A stretch of 32,000 nucleotides of DNA from Promethearchaeota archaeon (GCA_016933055.1 JAFGBS010000009.1:1-32000); one strand, 5' to 3'; counted from the stretch's first letter, positions 1 through 5,460 are shown. A program made the numbers and translations. Notes: generated by a model from the letters alone, not told the origin.

Positions 1-225
1 GGAGGTCCCCAAGTTGTTCATCGATGGCAAGGGCTTCCTTGTAATAGCGCATTGCTTCATCCCACTCGCCTTTGTCATGGTATAATATACCGATGTTGGT
101 GAGTTCCTTTGATTTGCCCCGAAGATCTCCTAGCTGCTCATCGATGGCAAGAGCTTCCTTGTAATAGCGCCTTGCTTCATCCCATTCGCCTTTGTCGTGG
201 AGTAATCGACCGATGTTTGTGAGGG
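1..225 (-). repeat. 120-bp tandem repeat encoding TPR units of the SIR2-TPR gene
   Basis: tcatcgatggcaagggcttccttgtaatagcgcattgcttcatcccactcgcctttgtcatgg (18-80) recurs with 5 substitutions at 138-200. Confidence 0.9.
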
Positions 226-1330
226 TGATAGATTGCCATCTTTGATTTTTTGTTTCTTGAGCATGTTTCAATAGAATTCTTGCGCAGCGTTCTGCATTGT
301 TTAGAAAACTTAAGTTATCATATATTTCATATGGAATCTGGTAGACTTGATATTCATCGGGAGATTTAATTTGGGAGTTTATGTAGCTTAAGAGATCCGT
401 TTCACTATATGATTGGGAAATTTCTGATTTTCGTTTTATAAACAGTGTTCCGAGGTCAGATGTATGCATTTTTACACGGACCAATTGAGTTCTATACCCC
501 ATTCGATGAACTTCTTGGAAAATGTTGCCTACTTTATCCTTAGGAGAGATCTCGATATCTGAAGAAAATTCCTGAATAATTGGCTTAGTTCCTTTCGGTG
601 CATGTTCAATCCAGATTAGCTGATCAAGAGTGTCTAATAATCTCAAAGTTGGCGTAATATCGAAATCATCGCTTCCCGAATATCCCATTATCACCAATGT
701 GCGTCCATTAGTAATGCTCTCAAATACCGGACGTTTATGGGGTTCCAATTGGAATACGGATTCCCCTTCCTTCCCTGATCCGAATGCTTGAATGGTTACA
801 ACCAGACTATCCTTGGTAGAGGTGTTCGTAATAATATTATGAGGCGAACCGTGGATTTTATATACGGGAAAATAGCCCTTACGGACCACTTTTGGCACAT
901 CGGAATATTTTTTAAAATCTTCTTCGGTAATCACGGGAAGATTACGGTTTTTCTTGACTTTGGATTGCATTAGTGCATGTTCGATAAGGCAATCGAAATT
1001 GGTAGTGAGAACGTAATGCCCCCGCTTCATCATTTCTACCAGAAAAAAGTGGTTTGTATTCGGTTTATCGCACAATCCATAGTAATCAATGAGTTTCAAT
1101 TCCGGATCCAAATAGTCCCGCACAATTTCCACCAATTGCTCGAAACGTAAATTCTCCAACCCGAGAATTTTTTCTACTTCGGATTCTGCACATGTATAGC
1201 GGATAATCACTTCCATCATTTCCCGACCTAAAGGTAAATTCGATGGGGGATCACGGGAAATCCCTGCACCTACTAAAAACGTATATTTTCCCTTTTTTGC
1301 GAATAGATCTTTCAGTGTCAATTCTCCCAT
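1..1330 (-). CDS. SIR2-like (SIR2_2) NADase domain protein with C-terminal TPR repeats; 3' end lies outside the window
   Basis: Manual translation from ATG 1330 is open to base 1 (443 codons): MGELTLKDLFAKKGKYTFLVGAGISRDPP...VLTTNFDCLIE...VYKIHGSP...VIMGYSGSDDFDI, then 40-aa TPRs (ITLTNIGRLLHDKGEWDEARRYYKEALAIDEQLGDL). It is absent from the ORF track because there is no stop in the window. Confidence 0.92.
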   Translation of the reverse strand, partial: MGELTLKDLFAKKGKYTFLVGAGISRDPPSNLPLGREMMEVIIRYTCAESEVEKILGLENLRFEQLVEIVRDYLDPELKLIDYYGLCDKPNTNHFFLVEMMKRGHYVLTTNFDCLIEHALMQSKVKKNRNLPVITEEDFKKYSDVPKVVRKGYFPVYKIHGSPHNIITNTSTKDSLVVTIQAFGSGKEGESVFQLEPHKRPVFESITNGRTLVIMGYSGSDDFDITPTLRLLDTLDQLIWIEHAPKGTKPIIQEFSSDIEISPKDKVGNIFQEVHRMGYRTQLVRVKMHTSDLGTLFIKRKSEISQSYSETDLLSYINSQIKSPDEYQVYQIPYEIYDNLSFLNNAERCARILLKHAQETKNQRWQSITLTNIGRLLHDKGEWDEARRYYKEALAIDEQLGDLRGKSKELTNIGILYHDKGEWDEAMRYYKEALAIDEQLGDL

Positions 1331-1380
1331 GAATCAATTACGGTGTTGGGAAATAAAAAAGTGATGATGGAGGTTTTTTG

Positions 1381-2130
1381 TCATAAATTTTTCAATTTCG
1401 CAATCACACGATGTTCTAATTCGGGATCTTGACGTATTTTTTTTCCGATGCACTCGGGGCAAATTCGCATTCCAAGAACATGCATATATCCTCCTAATCC
1501 TTGTAGCATCTTTTCCCAAGATCCTTGTTTATATCTTTGGTAACCCACATTTACAATATCACTTATAATTCGACCGCATTCCTCACATCGAGAATCTAAA
1601 GAATTTCTTGCCCGATCTATGAGAAATCGTCTGGTTTCTTCATAATGCTCAATCTCTGATGTTTTTGGGAAGGAAGTACTTTTAGGAGTGTATTCTTGAT
1701 AAGATGAATCTGGTTCAACAAATGAACTAGATAAGGCGGTTTGTGGACGTTTAATAATCTCCACGATTTCTTCGGCAACACTTTCAAGGTCATGACTCGA
1801 AAATTTGACGCCCAATTTTGATGACAACAGTGCGGGAATATAATTCTTTTCGATAAATACAGGAATGATGTGTTTTTGTTTCATAAGAGCTGCTTTCCAT
1901 TCCATTTTCACTGAATCTGAGCTTTTCGTGAGGGAGGAACAAAATAATAAGAAAACATCACAATTTTCAATCCCGTAATCCATATATTCTACGATATCAT
2001 ATTTTGTATCTTGTTGCCAAAATAGAACTTTCTCAATTATTGAATAGCGTTCTAATTCTCGTGCTAACTGAGGTATACGAAACTGGTTAGCATCTTCGGT
2101 CACATAACTCATAAATATTATATGTCCCAT
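1381..2130 (-). CDS. TIR domain protein with C-terminal CxxC-x38-CxxC zinc finger
   Basis: N-terminal TIR: IFMSY, CDVFLLFCS, SVKMEW (putative catalytic E77), IIPVF. Ser/Pro-rich linker, then CEEC...CPEC. Confidence 0.88.
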   Translation of the reverse strand: MGHIIFMSYVTEDANQFRIPQLARELERYSIIEKVLFWQQDTKYDIVEYMDYGIENCDVFLLFCSSLTKSSDSVKMEWKAALMKQKHIIPVFIEKNYIPALLSSKLGVKFSSHDLESVAEEIVEIIKRPQTALSSSFVEPDSSYQEYTPKSTSFPKTSEIEHYEETRRFLIDRARNSLDSRCEECGRIISDIVNVGYQRYKQGSWEKMLQGLGGYMHVLGMRICPECIGKKIRQDPELEHRVIAKLKNL

Positions 2131-2155
2131 AATTAATCCCGTTTTTCGTTAGCTT

Positions 2156-2314
2156 TCAACGCACACGCATAACATTTTCACACCCACAGTTCGGACAATT
2201 ATGTGGATCACAGCGTGAGCATACATTAATCATAGCATGACATTTTATACATCGATATTTGTGCATTCCGTAAAATGATGGTTCAGGATTTCCGCATAAA
2301 CTACACCTTTCCAT
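2156..2314 (-). CDS. 52-aa Cys-rich double zinc-ribbon micro-protein (HVO_2753/DUF1610-like layout)
   Basis: Manual translation: MERCSLCGNPEPSFYGMHKYRCIKCHAMINVCSRCDPHNCPNCGCENVMRVR*. It has four CxxC motifs, fills the gap between two co-directional genes, and is below the ORF-track length cutoff. Confidence 0.85.
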   Translation of the reverse strand: MERCSLCGNPEPSFYGMHKYRCIKCHAMINVCSRCDPHNCPNCGCENVMRVR

Positions 2315-2361
2315 AAGTTTATCTCACTAATTTTACCTTTTTTTTTTAAATTGTAGTACTG

Positions 2362-4221
2362 TTACTTCTTAGTTTTCTCTTTCTTGATTTTTTCGTACAT
2401 TTTTTTTGCGCACCGGATAATATTGTTGTGATCAAAAGCTAGATCTATCTGCTCTATTTCAGTCAACGATTTTTTTACAACTGATACTACGTCTGTAGAG
2501 GGACGTAATCCATCGAGACTCTTCACTTCGCATAGATACGCATGAGAAACGATTTTGCCTCGAGGATCGCGATTTGGATCATCGAATAATTTAATAAAAC
2601 GAGCCTTTTTTACTTCCAATCCGGTTTCTTCCCACATTTCCCGTTCTAAAGCTTCTAATTTAGCTTCTCCTAACTCAATAAATCCCCCTGGGAGAGCCAG
2701 TTGACCTTGGAATGGAGGGAATTTTCGTTCTACTAGCACAACAAAATCGTCATAGGTCTCTCTCCCATCTTTTCCTACTATTTCGGAATGTATGATAACA
2801 CCATCCACGGTTTCGCGAAGTATGGATTTTCCTGACTTTTTCGCATAATTAGTCAAGATATAAATTACAATGATAGACGCAAAAATGAGAATAATAAATC
2901 CAACTATAGCACTAAGATAGCTTTCCGTAATCCAATTATTCCGACGTGCTTCAAAATAAGAAAATGCCAGTAACACAAGATCCACGAATAAAGACAGGCC
3001 AAATAAAATTTCTAACAAGAAAGTACTTTTTTGTATAGATTTTTGGTCCTGTTCTTGGATTTGATGATAACGATTTTCTAAAGATTTAGATAATTTGTCT
3101 AATTTCGTATGTAACCATTCAGAAATTCCCTCAATATTAAAAATCTGCATCAGATGATGCAAGATTTTTTTGTAATATCCGGATCGATTTACCTCCAACT
3201 CGTTATATAATTCACTGATTTTTGCGTCAATTTTTCCTACTAAGAATTCATGTTCTGCAATTTGATTTTGGATGGATTGTACCTGCATCTGTGCCGACGT
3301 ATTCATACTAGTTACTAGATCGTCCAAGGAAATACTCAATTCCATCATAGCAAATTTAAGGCTGCGAATTGCACCAACAGTATCCACTAAGGTCTTTTTA
3401 TAATAGAGGTCAAAGAATTTATCAAAATCCTTCTGTTGAATATAAAGAAATGCCGAACCCGATTGAATATAACTCAATTCCGTAGTTTTGTAGCTTAAAT
3501 TTTTCTGTAATTGTTGATTTACCGCTTCTTCTTGAACATCGAATGATTCCCAGCGTCCAGAATAAGGCACAATCCAATGATAAATAGACTTCTTATGTTG
3601 CATAATCGAGATAGGCTCCCAACGAAATTCTGGTTTAACACCTAGTCCCTCTATTTTATCACAAATTGTAGTCACATATAGAGAATCCTCATCTAAGTAG
3701 ATGAATTCGAAATTTTTGGGAGGTGCTTTTATTTCTGTTACCTCACCCTCGTAAAGATCTATGTTTTTCAATATCTTTTTTAAACAATGGATAACATATA
3801 CGGGAAATTCGTGTAAAATCCAAGGACGAAGGGTGCGTTTTTCTTCTGTATTATCTTTAAAATATTCTACTTCAAATTCAATCCATCCCGCTTGATTGAA
3901 TAGGGCTTTTCCGTTCTTAAATGGGAACCCACGTAAAGATGGAAGCCATTTCATCTGCAAGGTAATATGTTTCGAAATATATATTAGTTCATTTAGGAAT
4001 GTATCGTCCCAACTGGCGTTTTCTACTTCTTGCTGAAAAATAGACTGTCGCCATGGACTTTCCACTGTGTCTTGATACAGTTTAATTAATTCTTTTCTCA
4101 ATTTTATGATAATCTCTTCAGGATTCATGATAACTGTATTGAAAAAGGCATTTGCAAACCAGTATTCTTTTCGGTAGATGAACTTCAACGGTTCTTGATC
4201 ATAGTTCACCAATATTTTCAC
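2362..4221 (-). CDS. Membrane protein: large soluble N-domain + helical stalk + 2 TM helices (CorA-like topology) fused to a C-terminal ADP-ribose-pyrophosphatase-type Nudix hydrolase
   Basis: TM1 ~aa 400-423 (TFLLEILFGLSLFVDLVLLAFSYF) and TM2 ~aa 435-458. Intact Nudix box GGFIELGEAKLEALEREMWEETGL (~aa 512-535), plus DPNRDPRG and LAFDH motifs. GTG start. The Nudix call is firm; the CorA-like call is inference. Confidence 0.85.
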   Translation of the reverse strand: MKILVNYDQEPLKFIYRKEYWFANAFFNTVIMNPEEIIIKLRKELIKLYQDTVESPWRQSIFQQEVENASWDDTFLNELIYISKHITLQMKWLPSLRGFPFKNGKALFNQAGWIEFEVEYFKDNTEEKRTLRPWILHEFPVYVIHCLKKILKNIDLYEGEVTEIKAPPKNFEFIYLDEDSLYVTTICDKIEGLGVKPEFRWEPISIMQHKKSIYHWIVPYSGRWESFDVQEEAVNQQLQKNLSYKTTELSYIQSGSAFLYIQQKDFDKFFDLYYKKTLVDTVGAIRSLKFAMMELSISLDDLVTSMNTSAQMQVQSIQNQIAEHEFLVGKIDAKISELYNELEVNRSGYYKKILHHLMQIFNIEGISEWLHTKLDKLSKSLENRYHQIQEQDQKSIQKSTFLLEILFGLSLFVDLVLLAFSYFEARRNNWITESYLSAIVGFIILIFASIIVIYILTNYAKKSGKSILRETVDGVIIHSEIVGKDGRETYDDFVVLVERKFPPFQGQLALPGGFIELGEAKLEALEREMWEETGLEVKKARFIKLFDDPNRDPRGKIVSHAYLCEVKSLDGLRPSTDVVSVVKKSLTEIEQIDLAFDHNNIIRCAKKMYEKIKKEKTKK

Positions 4222-4497
4222 CCGTTTCCATATTAGTGAAAAAAATATAAAAACGTATGGTGAAAATTAAAGTAAATTGAGTTTGCAGTATGAGGAAGGA
4301 CGGAATGCGTTTTACAGAATTTCTTCAACTATCTGCACATATTGCATGAAACTACTAAAAAAATTAATAGGTTTAATAGGAGTTTCAATTCATTTGAGTG
4401 ATAAACGAATTTATACCCATGTACATTAAATACTAAACAAATCACAAAAGTGAGAAAAAAATAAATACTCGATCGATGAATTAATATTGAGAAAATC

Positions 4498-5460
4498 ATG
4501 GGACGAGAAATATCGGGTACTTGGCATTGTATAAACTGTGGTTATACCGCTAAGGGTACAGAATGGAACACGCACATTATTAAGACATTTCAGAAATTTA
4601 TGAGGGAGGGAGCATTTTATCTCTGCCCACAATGTAAAACCGAAACTGAATTATATCGAGGCAATGGTAAAGGTCCCAAGAAAATTTTAGGAACTTGGCA
4701 TTGTGCAAACTGTGGATTTACAACCTCAGGTGAAGTTTGGAATACAAAAATGATTCGATCGTTTCAGAAATTTGGGGACGTGGGAACTATATATCGATGT
4801 CCACAGTGCAATGAAGATACCGAACTATATCGAGGTAAAGGTAGAGGAGGGGGAAAAAAAATTTACGGATATTGGCATTGCGTGAATTGTGGGTATACTG
4901 CAGATGGAAAAACATGGAATGGTTTAATTGTCAAAACATTTCGTAAATTTGGTCATAAAGGAGCAATTTACTCTTGTCCCGAATGTAATAAACATGTTGA
5001 GTTAGATAGGGGTTCAGGAACAGTATTAATGACAAAAAATCTTGCTGAAAAAGCTCCAGTGAAAATTAAAACCGTTTTCTTTAGTCATTCAACCCGAGAC
5101 TTCAAAACATATAACATTCCTGAAATCGCTGAAAGGTTGACAAAATATTTTGATATAAAAGATGCAATATTTTGGGAAGAAGATGCGGGTCATAATATCA
5201 TAGATTTTATGGATAAGACCTTAGGTGTGTGTAATGTGGCAGTTCTATTCTGTTCCGCTAATGCATTAGCATCGGAGAGTGTAAAAAAGGAATGGACTGC
5301 CATTGAGAGTTTAAATAAACCGATAATTCCGGTTTATACAGATCCCGAACATATCCCACCACTTCTTGCTCCACGGCAACGGATTTTATTTGATAGGACT
5401 AAATTTGATAAATTCATTGACGAACTACATGAATTGATTCAAAAAATAGTTGAAGAATAA
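4498..5460 (+). CDS. Protein with three tandem CxxC-x28-CxxC zinc-ribbon repeats fused to a C-terminal TIR domain
   Basis: Three 58-59-aa repeats WHCxNCG(Y/F)T..G..WN...+.F.KF...G..Y.CP.C...EL.RG. TIR: VFFSHS, CNVAVLFCS, SVKKEW (E265), IIPVY. Confidence 0.9.
   Translation: MGREISGTWHCINCGYTAKGTEWNTHIIKTFQKFMREGAFYLCPQCKTETELYRGNGKGPKKILGTWHCANCGFTTSGEVWNTKMIRSFQKFGDVGTIYRCPQCNEDTELYRGKGRGGGKKIYGYWHCVNCGYTADGKTWNGLIVKTFRKFGHKGAIYSCPECNKHVELDRGSGTVLMTKNLAEKAPVKIKTVFFSHSTRDFKTYNIPEIAERLTKYFDIKDAIFWEEDAGHNIIDFMDKTLGVCNVAVLFCSANALASESVKKEWTAIESLNKPIIPVYTDPEHIPPLLAPRQRILFDRTKFDKFIDELHELIQKIVEE

Follow-up and report, generated by a model that had tools for sequence, protein, structure and literature searches.

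The first 5,460 positions of the window, as we call the whole 32,000-nucleotide stretch of Promethearchaeota archaeon DNA that was analyzed (JAFGBS010000009.1:1-32000), carry five genes, among which one for a CorA-like membrane protein fused to a Nudix domain (the Nudix fusion) and two for TIR proteins are the main subjects here. Genome G000, 3.76 Mb in size and 91% complete, includes contig C17, whose first 32 kb make up the window. The Nudix fusion gene (2362 to 4221, minus strand) encodes a 619-amino-acid membrane protein recognized by a Pfam NUDIX match, an AlphaFold (AF2) model, and fold matches. Downstream on the same strand lie an orphan Cys-rich micro-protein open reading frame (ORF) of 52 amino acids with four CxxC pairs (2156 to 2314), the TIR-Zn gene (1381 to 2130), which encodes 249 amino acids with a Pfam TIR_2 domain and a C-terminal CxxC-x38-CxxC module, and a SIR2-TPR gene (2 to 1330), assigned by Pfam SIR2_2 and TPR_12 matches and by motifs, and cut off at its 3′ end by the start of the contig, with 443 codons visible. 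The Zn3-TIR gene (4498 to 5460) is transcribed from the plus strand and encodes 320 amino acids, in which three tandem CxxC-x28-CxxC zinc-ribbon repeats precede a TIR domain identified by Pfam. Between it and the Nudix fusion, reading of the sequence gave an AT-rich intergenic region of 276 nucleotides (4222 to 4497), which is presumed to hold the promoters for both genes. ORF calling put all five genes, with their strands, exactly where an earlier note on this DNA had placed them, with gaps of 47, 25, and 50 nucleotides in the minus-strand run.

Sequence inspection indicated a T-rich tract, TTTTTTATTT, between the TIR-Zn and SIR2 genes, as the earlier note had reported, and a TATA-like tract, TTTAAAAAAAAAA, roughly 30 nucleotides upstream of the micro-protein ORF. 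A scan of the window at Rfam gathering thresholds gave no match, and a bacterial-type promoter and terminator scan, a type that is not applicable to archaea, gave no more sites than in shuffled sequence. A tRNA scan found no tRNA genes in the window or near 15 loci of the Nudix fusion family, and thus there is no sign in these sequences of an insertion hot spot around the loci. Near-identical pieces of the locus are present in contigs from a 2017 hot-spring metagenome.

The family alignment, made from 61 homologs of the Nudix fusion, contains a strongly conserved 400-residue N-terminal region, two transmembrane (TM) helices, and a Nudix domain. In the 619-residue window protein, an alpha/beta N-terminal domain and long stalk helices (residues ~1 to 400) are followed by TM1 (~401 to 424) and TM2 (~432 to 458), both placed by a hydropathy scan, and by the Nudix domain (~466 to 612), which matched Pfam NUDIX with an E value of 1.9e-15. 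The AlphaFold model of the whole protein had a mean confidence (pLDDT) of 84, and its Nudix domain was closest in structure comparison to the NrtR Nudix domain with ADP-ribose (3gz8; Z 21.6, root-mean-square deviation [rmsd] 1.6), followed by 2qjt (Z 17.6), 2qjo (Z 17.1), and other NrtR and NadM-Nudix structures. Profile comparison with the PDB likewise returned 2yyh (7.8e-28), 2qjt (1.8e-18), and 3gz8 (5.3e-18). The Nudix box begins at residue 510 and is followed by RDPRG at 551 and LAFDH at 594, motifs that the window protein has in common with 2yyh and 3i9x. Moreover, the residues of the Nudix box signature GX5EX7REUXEEXGU are present in the window protein (G513, E519, R527, E528, E531, and E532), and the box is intact in 59 of the 61 family members. 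We conclude that the domain is of the ADP-ribose type, as the earlier note proposed from motifs, and that it is probably an active hydrolase because the box is so widely intact; the note's further idea, of the Nudix domain as the nucleotide-binding module in place of SLOG or Macro, is for the same reason probably too narrow.

Fold searches with the full model gave Nudix matches only, and the N-terminal part was therefore folded and searched separately. The model of residues 1 to 465 (pLDDT 83.8, predicted template modeling score [pTM] 0.78) matched the CorA structure 4ev6 over 234 residues spanning 16 to 455 (Z 8.0, rmsd 5.5), the ZntB structure 5n9y (Z 7.5), and MRS2 (Z 6.7), scores that a common helical arrangement can also reach. 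Together, the CorA, ZntB, and Mrs2 matches span residues 13 to 458, that is, the alpha/beta domain, the stalk, and on into the TM helices. Foldseek agreed in kind, as about 40 of its top 50 matches to the N-terminal part were CorA, ZntB, or CmaX, with a best E value of just 1.9e-3. A Pfam scan of the 61 N-terminal domains gave only noise (e.g., H-NS_N and DUF2207_C). The TM1 region reads LLEILFGLSLFVDLVLLAFSYFEARRNNW in the window protein and LN.LFGAG...D in the family consensus, and in the 61-member alignment TM1 opens with conserved, polar residues while TM2 varies, the pattern expected of a pore-lining TM1. Thus, the label "2TM-Nudix" used in the earlier note was right about the two TM helices and the Nudix domain and missed a conserved N-terminal domain of about 400 residues that is CorA-like.

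Proteins of a similar build occur elsewhere. AlphaFold DB clusters add uncharacterized proteins of the same build, some of them named CorA or magnesium transporter, and the clusters D5E559, A0A1G4RWX9, and B7KH80 combine the CorA-like build with other N-terminal modules (e.g., N-acetyltransferase) or a DUF155 label, which may point to a broader class of CorA-like membrane proteins coupled to enzymes. CorA-like versions that lack the Nudix domain (~400 to 480 amino acids; P0021, P0022, P0023, P0029, and others) occur in metagenomes, and the whole family numbers 114 representatives among 1.84 billion proteins. The contigs of two Nudix-less relatives, P0021 and P0029 (~400 to 450 amino acids), had no TIR, SIR2, or Nudix neighbors and were uninformative.

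Among 400 genomes searched within the phylum, about 100 full-length homologs turned up, every one in the class to which the window belongs. A scan of species-representative genomes found the family only in metagenome-assembled genomes of Promethearchaeota (Asgard archaea) plus a few records labeled as other taxa. Neighborhoods were compared over ~9 kb on each side of 60 homologs, and 80 loci from the second scan were re-analyzed. The family is widespread and largely syntenic across genomes, and its tree resolves into clade A (30 rows) and clade B (22 rows; support, 100/100), which are paralogous and both lie within one archaeal family. The window copy and a second copy in the same genome, on contig C35, stand apart on a branch of their own outside A and B (100/100) and are 41% identical; judged by the tree, they are a duplication within their own lineage. 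Clade A is arranged head to head with the quinolinate synthase gene nadA (Pfam, 1.8e-103) in 15 of 30 loci of the first set and 33 of 57 loci of the second scan. The spacing to nadA is 27 to 166 nucleotides, and LRR and HTH proteins often lie beyond (L038:7964-8905 and ~33 more loci, L099-L178).

Clade B is arranged with TIR genes instead. In this clade, 16 of 22 loci have a TIR gene no more than three genes from the Nudix fusion, and 13 of 17 species-representative loci have one no more than 3 kb away. The homologs are thus repeatedly and nonrandomly linked to TIR genes, and the lack of such linkage that the earlier note had named as a refuting observation was not borne out. Order and orientation vary between loci; with N for the Nudix fusion, T for a TIR gene, and numbers for gene clusters, the arrangements include 14>13T>N>, N>14>13T>, 13T<14<N>, N>96T<66T<63T<, and 464T<N>. 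The window copy belongs to a separate lineage, and its TIR flanks are therefore an independent case. Five clade B genomes contain 3, 4, 12, 14, and 3 TIR_2 genes, of which 1, 2, 4, 3, and 1, respectively, flank the Nudix fusion, and in the window genome 2 of 3 to 4 TIR genes do so; the share of a genome's TIR genes beside the fusion is thus a quarter to two thirds. A 12-kb neighborhood is ~0.3% of a 4-Mb genome, and the observed 13 adjacent genes out of 39 are far above the chance expectation, even when kinship between the genomes is discounted. The caution in the earlier note that expansion of TIR genes might account for the adjacency does not hold for a genome with just 3 to 4 of them. Moreover, when 50 TIR domains were placed in a tree, those adjacent to the fusion fell into at least five subclades, mixed with nonadjacent ones, and the starred branches force at least three. 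We conclude that several TIR lineages moved beside, or stayed beside, this gene.

The TIR partners differ widely in their other domains. One clade B partner is a cytoplasmic WD40-TIR protein of ~1220 amino acids; others are receptor-like TIR proteins with a signal peptide, an ectodomain, and one TM helix, and there is also a four-TM TIR protein. The ectodomains are of the beta-helix/NosD, LVIVD/TSP3, WD40/PQQ propeller, or periplasmic/solute-binding protein type, and several of these proteins have the topology of Toll-like receptors, with the TIR domain C-terminal and cytoplasmic (L085:5779-8982, L088:3749-5383, L060:10957-15231, and L070:14432-18646). Directly upstream of the ~1220-amino-acid WD40-TIR gene in ten loci, in any orientation relative to the Nudix fusion, is a gene for a four-TM protein of 146 amino acids without a Pfam family (L076:18-458, L046:4537-4977, and eight others). 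The TIR-linked loci also hold a permease, a radical SAM gene, PAC2, and an enoyl-CoA hydratase, and a CCG/Fe-S protein is among the other housekeeping neighbors of the family. Genomes with clade A only contain 0 to 2 TIR genes.

Some further frames bear on the count of TIR genes. In the window genome, a weak TIR_2 match (21 bits, below cutoff) lies in a 269-amino-acid frame 4.7 kb past the window end (G000 C17:36716-36955), and a 1352-amino-acid protein on contig C19 was matched by a custom TIR profile and not by Pfam TIR_2 at an E value of 0.01 or better. In a genome of the same family as the window genome (G143), two genes lie downstream of the Nudix fusion in the same direction, the first for an 825-amino-acid WD40 protein and the second weakly isochorismatase-like and possibly a nicotinamidase gene (L036:8596-11860). 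Neither this WD40 protein nor a 304-amino-acid protein encoded beside the C35 paralog of the SIR2-TPR gene proved to hide a TIR domain, as profile comparison found both not to be TIR-like.

The two TIR proteins of the window matched Pfam TIR_2 (1.5e-14 for TIR-Zn and 4.2e-12 for Zn3-TIR), are 34% identical to each other over 124 residues, and carry the TIR glutamate at E77 and E265, respectively. The glutamate column is invariant in an alignment (A3) of 19 TIRs that adjoin the Nudix fusion and at least 90% conserved among 25 TIRs. Zn3-TIR has six CxxC pairs and also matches several Pfam zinc-ribbon families, TIR-Zn has two pairs, at 182 and 224, and the micro-protein has four, which bears out the claim that three of the five proteins carry CxxC modules. 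The SIR2-TPR protein matched Pfam SIR2_2 (PF13289; 8.2e-10) and TPR_12 (2.2e-21), and a motif scan found its NAD-binding glycine motif and its catalytic Asn and His all present, with GAGIS at 21, TTNFD at 109, and KIHG at 158. Thus, the key motifs that the earlier note had called intact, namely the two glutamates, TTNFD/KIHG, and the full Nudix box, are all at the residues it named.

The visible SIR2-TPR gene is incomplete. Contig C6 ends in an 85-amino-acid open TPR frame, and window bases 1 to 62 match that end at 90%, which suggests that the gene probably continues there. The break in the assembly falls within TPR repeats that are nearly identical (window 1 to 230; G000 C6:426712-426971), and a joint of the repeat type in a hot-spring metagenome contig, leading from 223 back to 1, indicates that the true TPR array is longer than assembled. 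If contigs C17 and C6 join, six consecutive ORFs of 106 to 419 amino acids without a Pfam family (G000 C6:420564-426670; L005:564-6670) would lie directly beyond the SIR2-TPR gene. For the micro-protein, a word-based search found no homolog. Among the 26,149 small open frames in this genome, just 5 have four or more CxxC motifs, and because the pattern is so rare, the 52-amino-acid ORF is probably a real gene.

A second SIR2-TPR gene lies near the C35 paralog of the Nudix fusion. It encodes 822 amino acids and is 32% identical to the SIR2-TPR protein of the window, and both strong SIR2-TPR genes of the genome are thus within ~6 kb of the two Nudix fusion paralogs. The C35 locus (G000 C35:17944-27101; L004:3945-13102) runs from the SIR2-TPR gene through the 304-amino-acid protein without a family, 20 nucleotides downstream, to PNPOx, a sulfatase, a 3-hydroxyisobutyrate-dehydrogenase-like gene, VapBC, and the Nudix fusion paralog of 578 amino acids, beyond which is a convergent P-type ATPase gene. 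P-type ATPase neighbors were found at two loci only (C35 and L062). The recurrence of SIR2-TPR at both paralogous loci is suggestive, and a single ancient duplication might account for it. Elsewhere, BLAST found no SIR2 gene beside the family in ~140 loci, Pfam SIR2_2 found none adjoining it in four other genomes, and of the 15 SIR2_2 genes in the same-family genome, not one adjoins that genome's copy of the Nudix fusion. We conclude that SIR2-TPR, which the earlier note counted as part of the system, is linked to the Nudix fusion in this genome only.

Thoeris systems consist of a TIR signal generator, ThsB, and a nucleotide-activated effector. On the comparative evidence above, the association of TIR with the CorA-like-Nudix protein is real and undescribed, and it suggests an undescribed NAD-based signaling or defense module, the support for which is comparative and structural. 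We consider it an even chance that the conserved core is a gene pair, made up of at least one TIR protein and a CorA-like membrane protein with a putatively active Nudix domain of the ADP-ribose type, that works as a Thoeris-like circuit. In such a circuit, the variable part of each TIR protein would sense a cue, through zinc ribbons in the window and through WD40 arrays or receptor-like ectodomains elsewhere, and the TIR domain would cleave NAD+ to ADP-ribose or a cyclic or modified ADP-ribose. The nucleotide would bind the Nudix domain, which is predicted to sit just under the membrane after TM2, and thereby change the state of a CorA-like pore and alter ion flux, and the Nudix domain would then hydrolyze the nucleotide and end the signal. 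The SIR2-TPR protein would have been added in this lineage as another enzyme that consumes NAD+, with TPRs as a sensor of its own, and the 52-amino-acid zinc protein would be an orphan accessory. An NAD theme is suggested by the nearest Nudix structures, which are NrtR with ADP-ribose and NadM-Nudix, and by the position of sister clade A beside nadA. The fuller version, an Asgard membrane pathway in which TIR proteins respond to a cue from outside or inside by making an NAD-derived nucleotide, which opens a CorA-like channel through the fused Nudix domain and is then destroyed by that domain, seems to us unlikely as a whole.

Several observations weigh against the proposed circuit. The likeness to CorA is modest and weakly to moderately supported (Z 8.0 at an rmsd of 5.5; Foldseek, 1.9e-3), none of the 61 members matched Pfam CorA at an E value of 0.1 or better, and the GMN motif (or GVN/GIN) is absent from the end of TM1 in both the window protein and the family consensus. 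Because the scores are modest and the motif is missing, we describe the modeled membrane part as CorA-like in architecture and not as a member of the CorA family. The intact Nudix box would fit a plain ADP-ribose-clearing enzyme as well as a gated sensor. Coupling to a TIR partner is not obligate, as 6 of 22 clade B loci and the C35 paralog have no TIR gene nearby; and because genomes without a full-length copy still contain 3 to 12 TIR genes, TIR proteins do not all depend on the Nudix fusion. The supporting genomes come mostly from one family (three genera), and the counts overstate their independence. Moreover, the loci lie among housekeeping genes and not in defense islands, so that a defense role is putative. 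Finally, the four minus-strand genes may belong to separate transcripts, divided at the T-rich tract ahead of the SIR2 gene and at the TATA-like tract ahead of the micro-protein.

The main rival to a TIR-driven circuit is NAD housekeeping, in which the membrane-anchored Nudix domain would clear ADP-ribose from NAD+ consumers (TIR and SIR2) to adenosine monophosphate and ribose-5-phosphate; co-location with nadA would serve co-regulation, and the CorA-like part might supply Mg2+/Mn2+ or merely act as an anchor. The Nudix box intact in 59 of 61 members, the head-to-head position of clade A with nadA (33 of 57 loci), the isochorismatase-like gene after the copy in the same-family genome, the housekeeping neighbors, and a wide, largely syntenic distribution, as for a cellular rather than a mobile gene, would all follow from it. 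It leaves unexplained, however, the fusion of an ADP-ribose hydrolase of a soluble type to a CorA-like module that is large and highly conserved, as well as the recurrence of at least five TIR lineages with sensor or receptor domains beside one clade. Moreover, most of these genomes already contain small Nudix genes of that type that stand alone. We hold it somewhat unlikely. A related account makes TIR and SIR2 toxic NADase effectors and the Nudix protein an antidote or brake that destroys their product, with no gating of a channel. The intact catalytic residues of the TIR and SIR2 domains and the active-type Nudix domain suit that account, and Nudix enzymes are known to limit TIR-dependent immunity in plants (NUDT7, EDS1). 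Messenger-degrading enzymes also accompany CorA effectors in type III CRISPR (PMC10600005, PMC12255297). Nevertheless, hydrolysis of ADP-ribose would be no rescue if toxicity stems from NAD+ depletion, the membrane module is again unaccounted for, and TIR genes occur also in genomes without the Nudix fusion, so that self-protection strikes us as very unlikely.

The five genes could also be independent, their clustering being due to chance or to local expansion of gene families, especially for SIR2-TPR and the micro-protein. That would accord with the abundance of SIR2_2 genes in the same-family genome and their absence near the Nudix fusion outside the window genome, with the lack of a homolog for the micro-protein, with the possible promoter and terminator tracts within the gene run, and with the ~5 kb of unrelated genes between SIR2-TPR and the Nudix fusion at C35. 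For the TIR genes, however, chance is excluded in practice, and both SIR2-TPR genes lie within ~6 kb of Nudix paralogs despite identities of only 32% and 41%, for which the chance is ~5e-5 if the two cases are independent; a single ancient duplication would reduce that co-location to one event. A merely loose neighborhood is on balance highly improbable. As to the catalogued systems, an ordinary member of a described Thoeris type (I to XI) or of another known defense system would account for the weak, domain-level matches that were obtained: Pfam ThsB_TIR at 8.5e-4, PADLOC ThsB at 0.039 and 0.035, and PADLOC ThsA at 8.7e-4 on the SIR2 part, none of them full-length, with the best PADLOC hit on SIR2 being PDC-S65 (3.4e-8) over ~40 residues. 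Yet no PADLOC model fitted beyond the domain level, in the Pfam results none of the five proteins has SLOG, Macro, or any further domain described for Thoeris effectors, and the main text of a recent survey of Thoeris types I to XI names neither Nudix nor CorA. Moreover, a full-text literature search found no paper combining CorA, Nudix, and TIR. Membership in a catalogued system is thus extremely unlikely, in keeping with the statement in the earlier note that it knew of no described system with this gene set.

TIR-based nucleotide signaling is known from bacteria, plants, and animals. To our knowledge, no complete Thoeris system has been recognized in Asgard archaea. A study of the Asgard defensome reported a viral Tad2-like anti-Thoeris gene and no complete Thoeris in the putative hosts (PMC13700489), and a conserved TIR partner that is invisible to standard tools would help to fill that gap. 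If the proposed circuit is true, a CorA-like pore with a built-in Nudix off-switch would be a new effector design for TIR signaling and a simple archaeal model for ADP-ribose-gated ion flux. The full membrane pathway, if true, would be the prokaryotic equivalent of the path that in eukaryotes leads from NADase via ADP-ribose to TRPM2, and its effector would form a new class for TIR proteins, in those archaea most closely related to eukaryotes. Whether such a module would serve immunity or ordinary cell signaling is a question prompted by the nadA link and by the receptor-like TIR proteins.

Among known systems, Thoeris resembles the window in having one or more TIR genes with a catalytic glutamate and variable sensors beside a protein with a domain of a kind that binds ADP-ribose-type nucleotides, and according to the survey of types I to XI some of its effectors span the membrane. 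Here, in contrast, the partner is an apparently active Nudix domain on a CorA-like body, and the loci are archaeal with housekeeping surroundings. The SIR2 proteins of defense systems (ThsA, DSR1/DSR2, SIR2-HerA, and SIR2-APAZ) share with that of the window the motifs GAGxS, TTNxD, and K(I/L)HG and a large repeat sensor, whereas the window locus has no SLOG, HerA, or Argonaute partner and its PADLOC hits are weak. NrtR and NadM-Nudix provide the closest solved domains, the RDPRG and LAFDH motifs, and a link to NAD biosynthesis genes, here nadA; however, NrtR has a domain that binds DNA besides a degenerate Nudix box, and the fusion partner in NadM-Nudix is an adenylyltransferase, whereas the box here is intact and the fusion is to a membrane module.

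The receiver has two further parallels. TRPM2 is an ion channel with a C-terminal cytoplasmic NUDT9-homology (Nudix) domain that binds ADP-ribose, and in some invertebrate orthologs the Nudix domain is still catalytic (a "chanzyme"). The window protein likewise would have a membrane body and a C-terminal cytoplasmic Nudix domain, a likeness that is functional and would be convergent, as the TRPM2 pore is a six-TM TRP tetramer, whereas here there are two TM helices with CorA-type fold matches and a Nudix domain from a different clade (NrtR/NadM type). In type III CRISPR, SAM-AMP switches on a CorA effector, and the signal is cleared by NrN or a SAM-AMP lyase (PMC10600005, PMC12255297). That arrangement resembles the proposed one in that a CorA-family effector of a nucleotide messenger is paired with, or fused to, a messenger-degrading enzyme. 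It differs in that the messenger there is made by Cas10 from S-adenosylmethionine (SAM) and adenosine triphosphate and here would be made by TIR from NAD+, there are no cas genes near the window locus, and CorA homology here is supported at the level of fold only. The type III CRISPR CorA effector is the closest established precedent for a receiver of the kind proposed.

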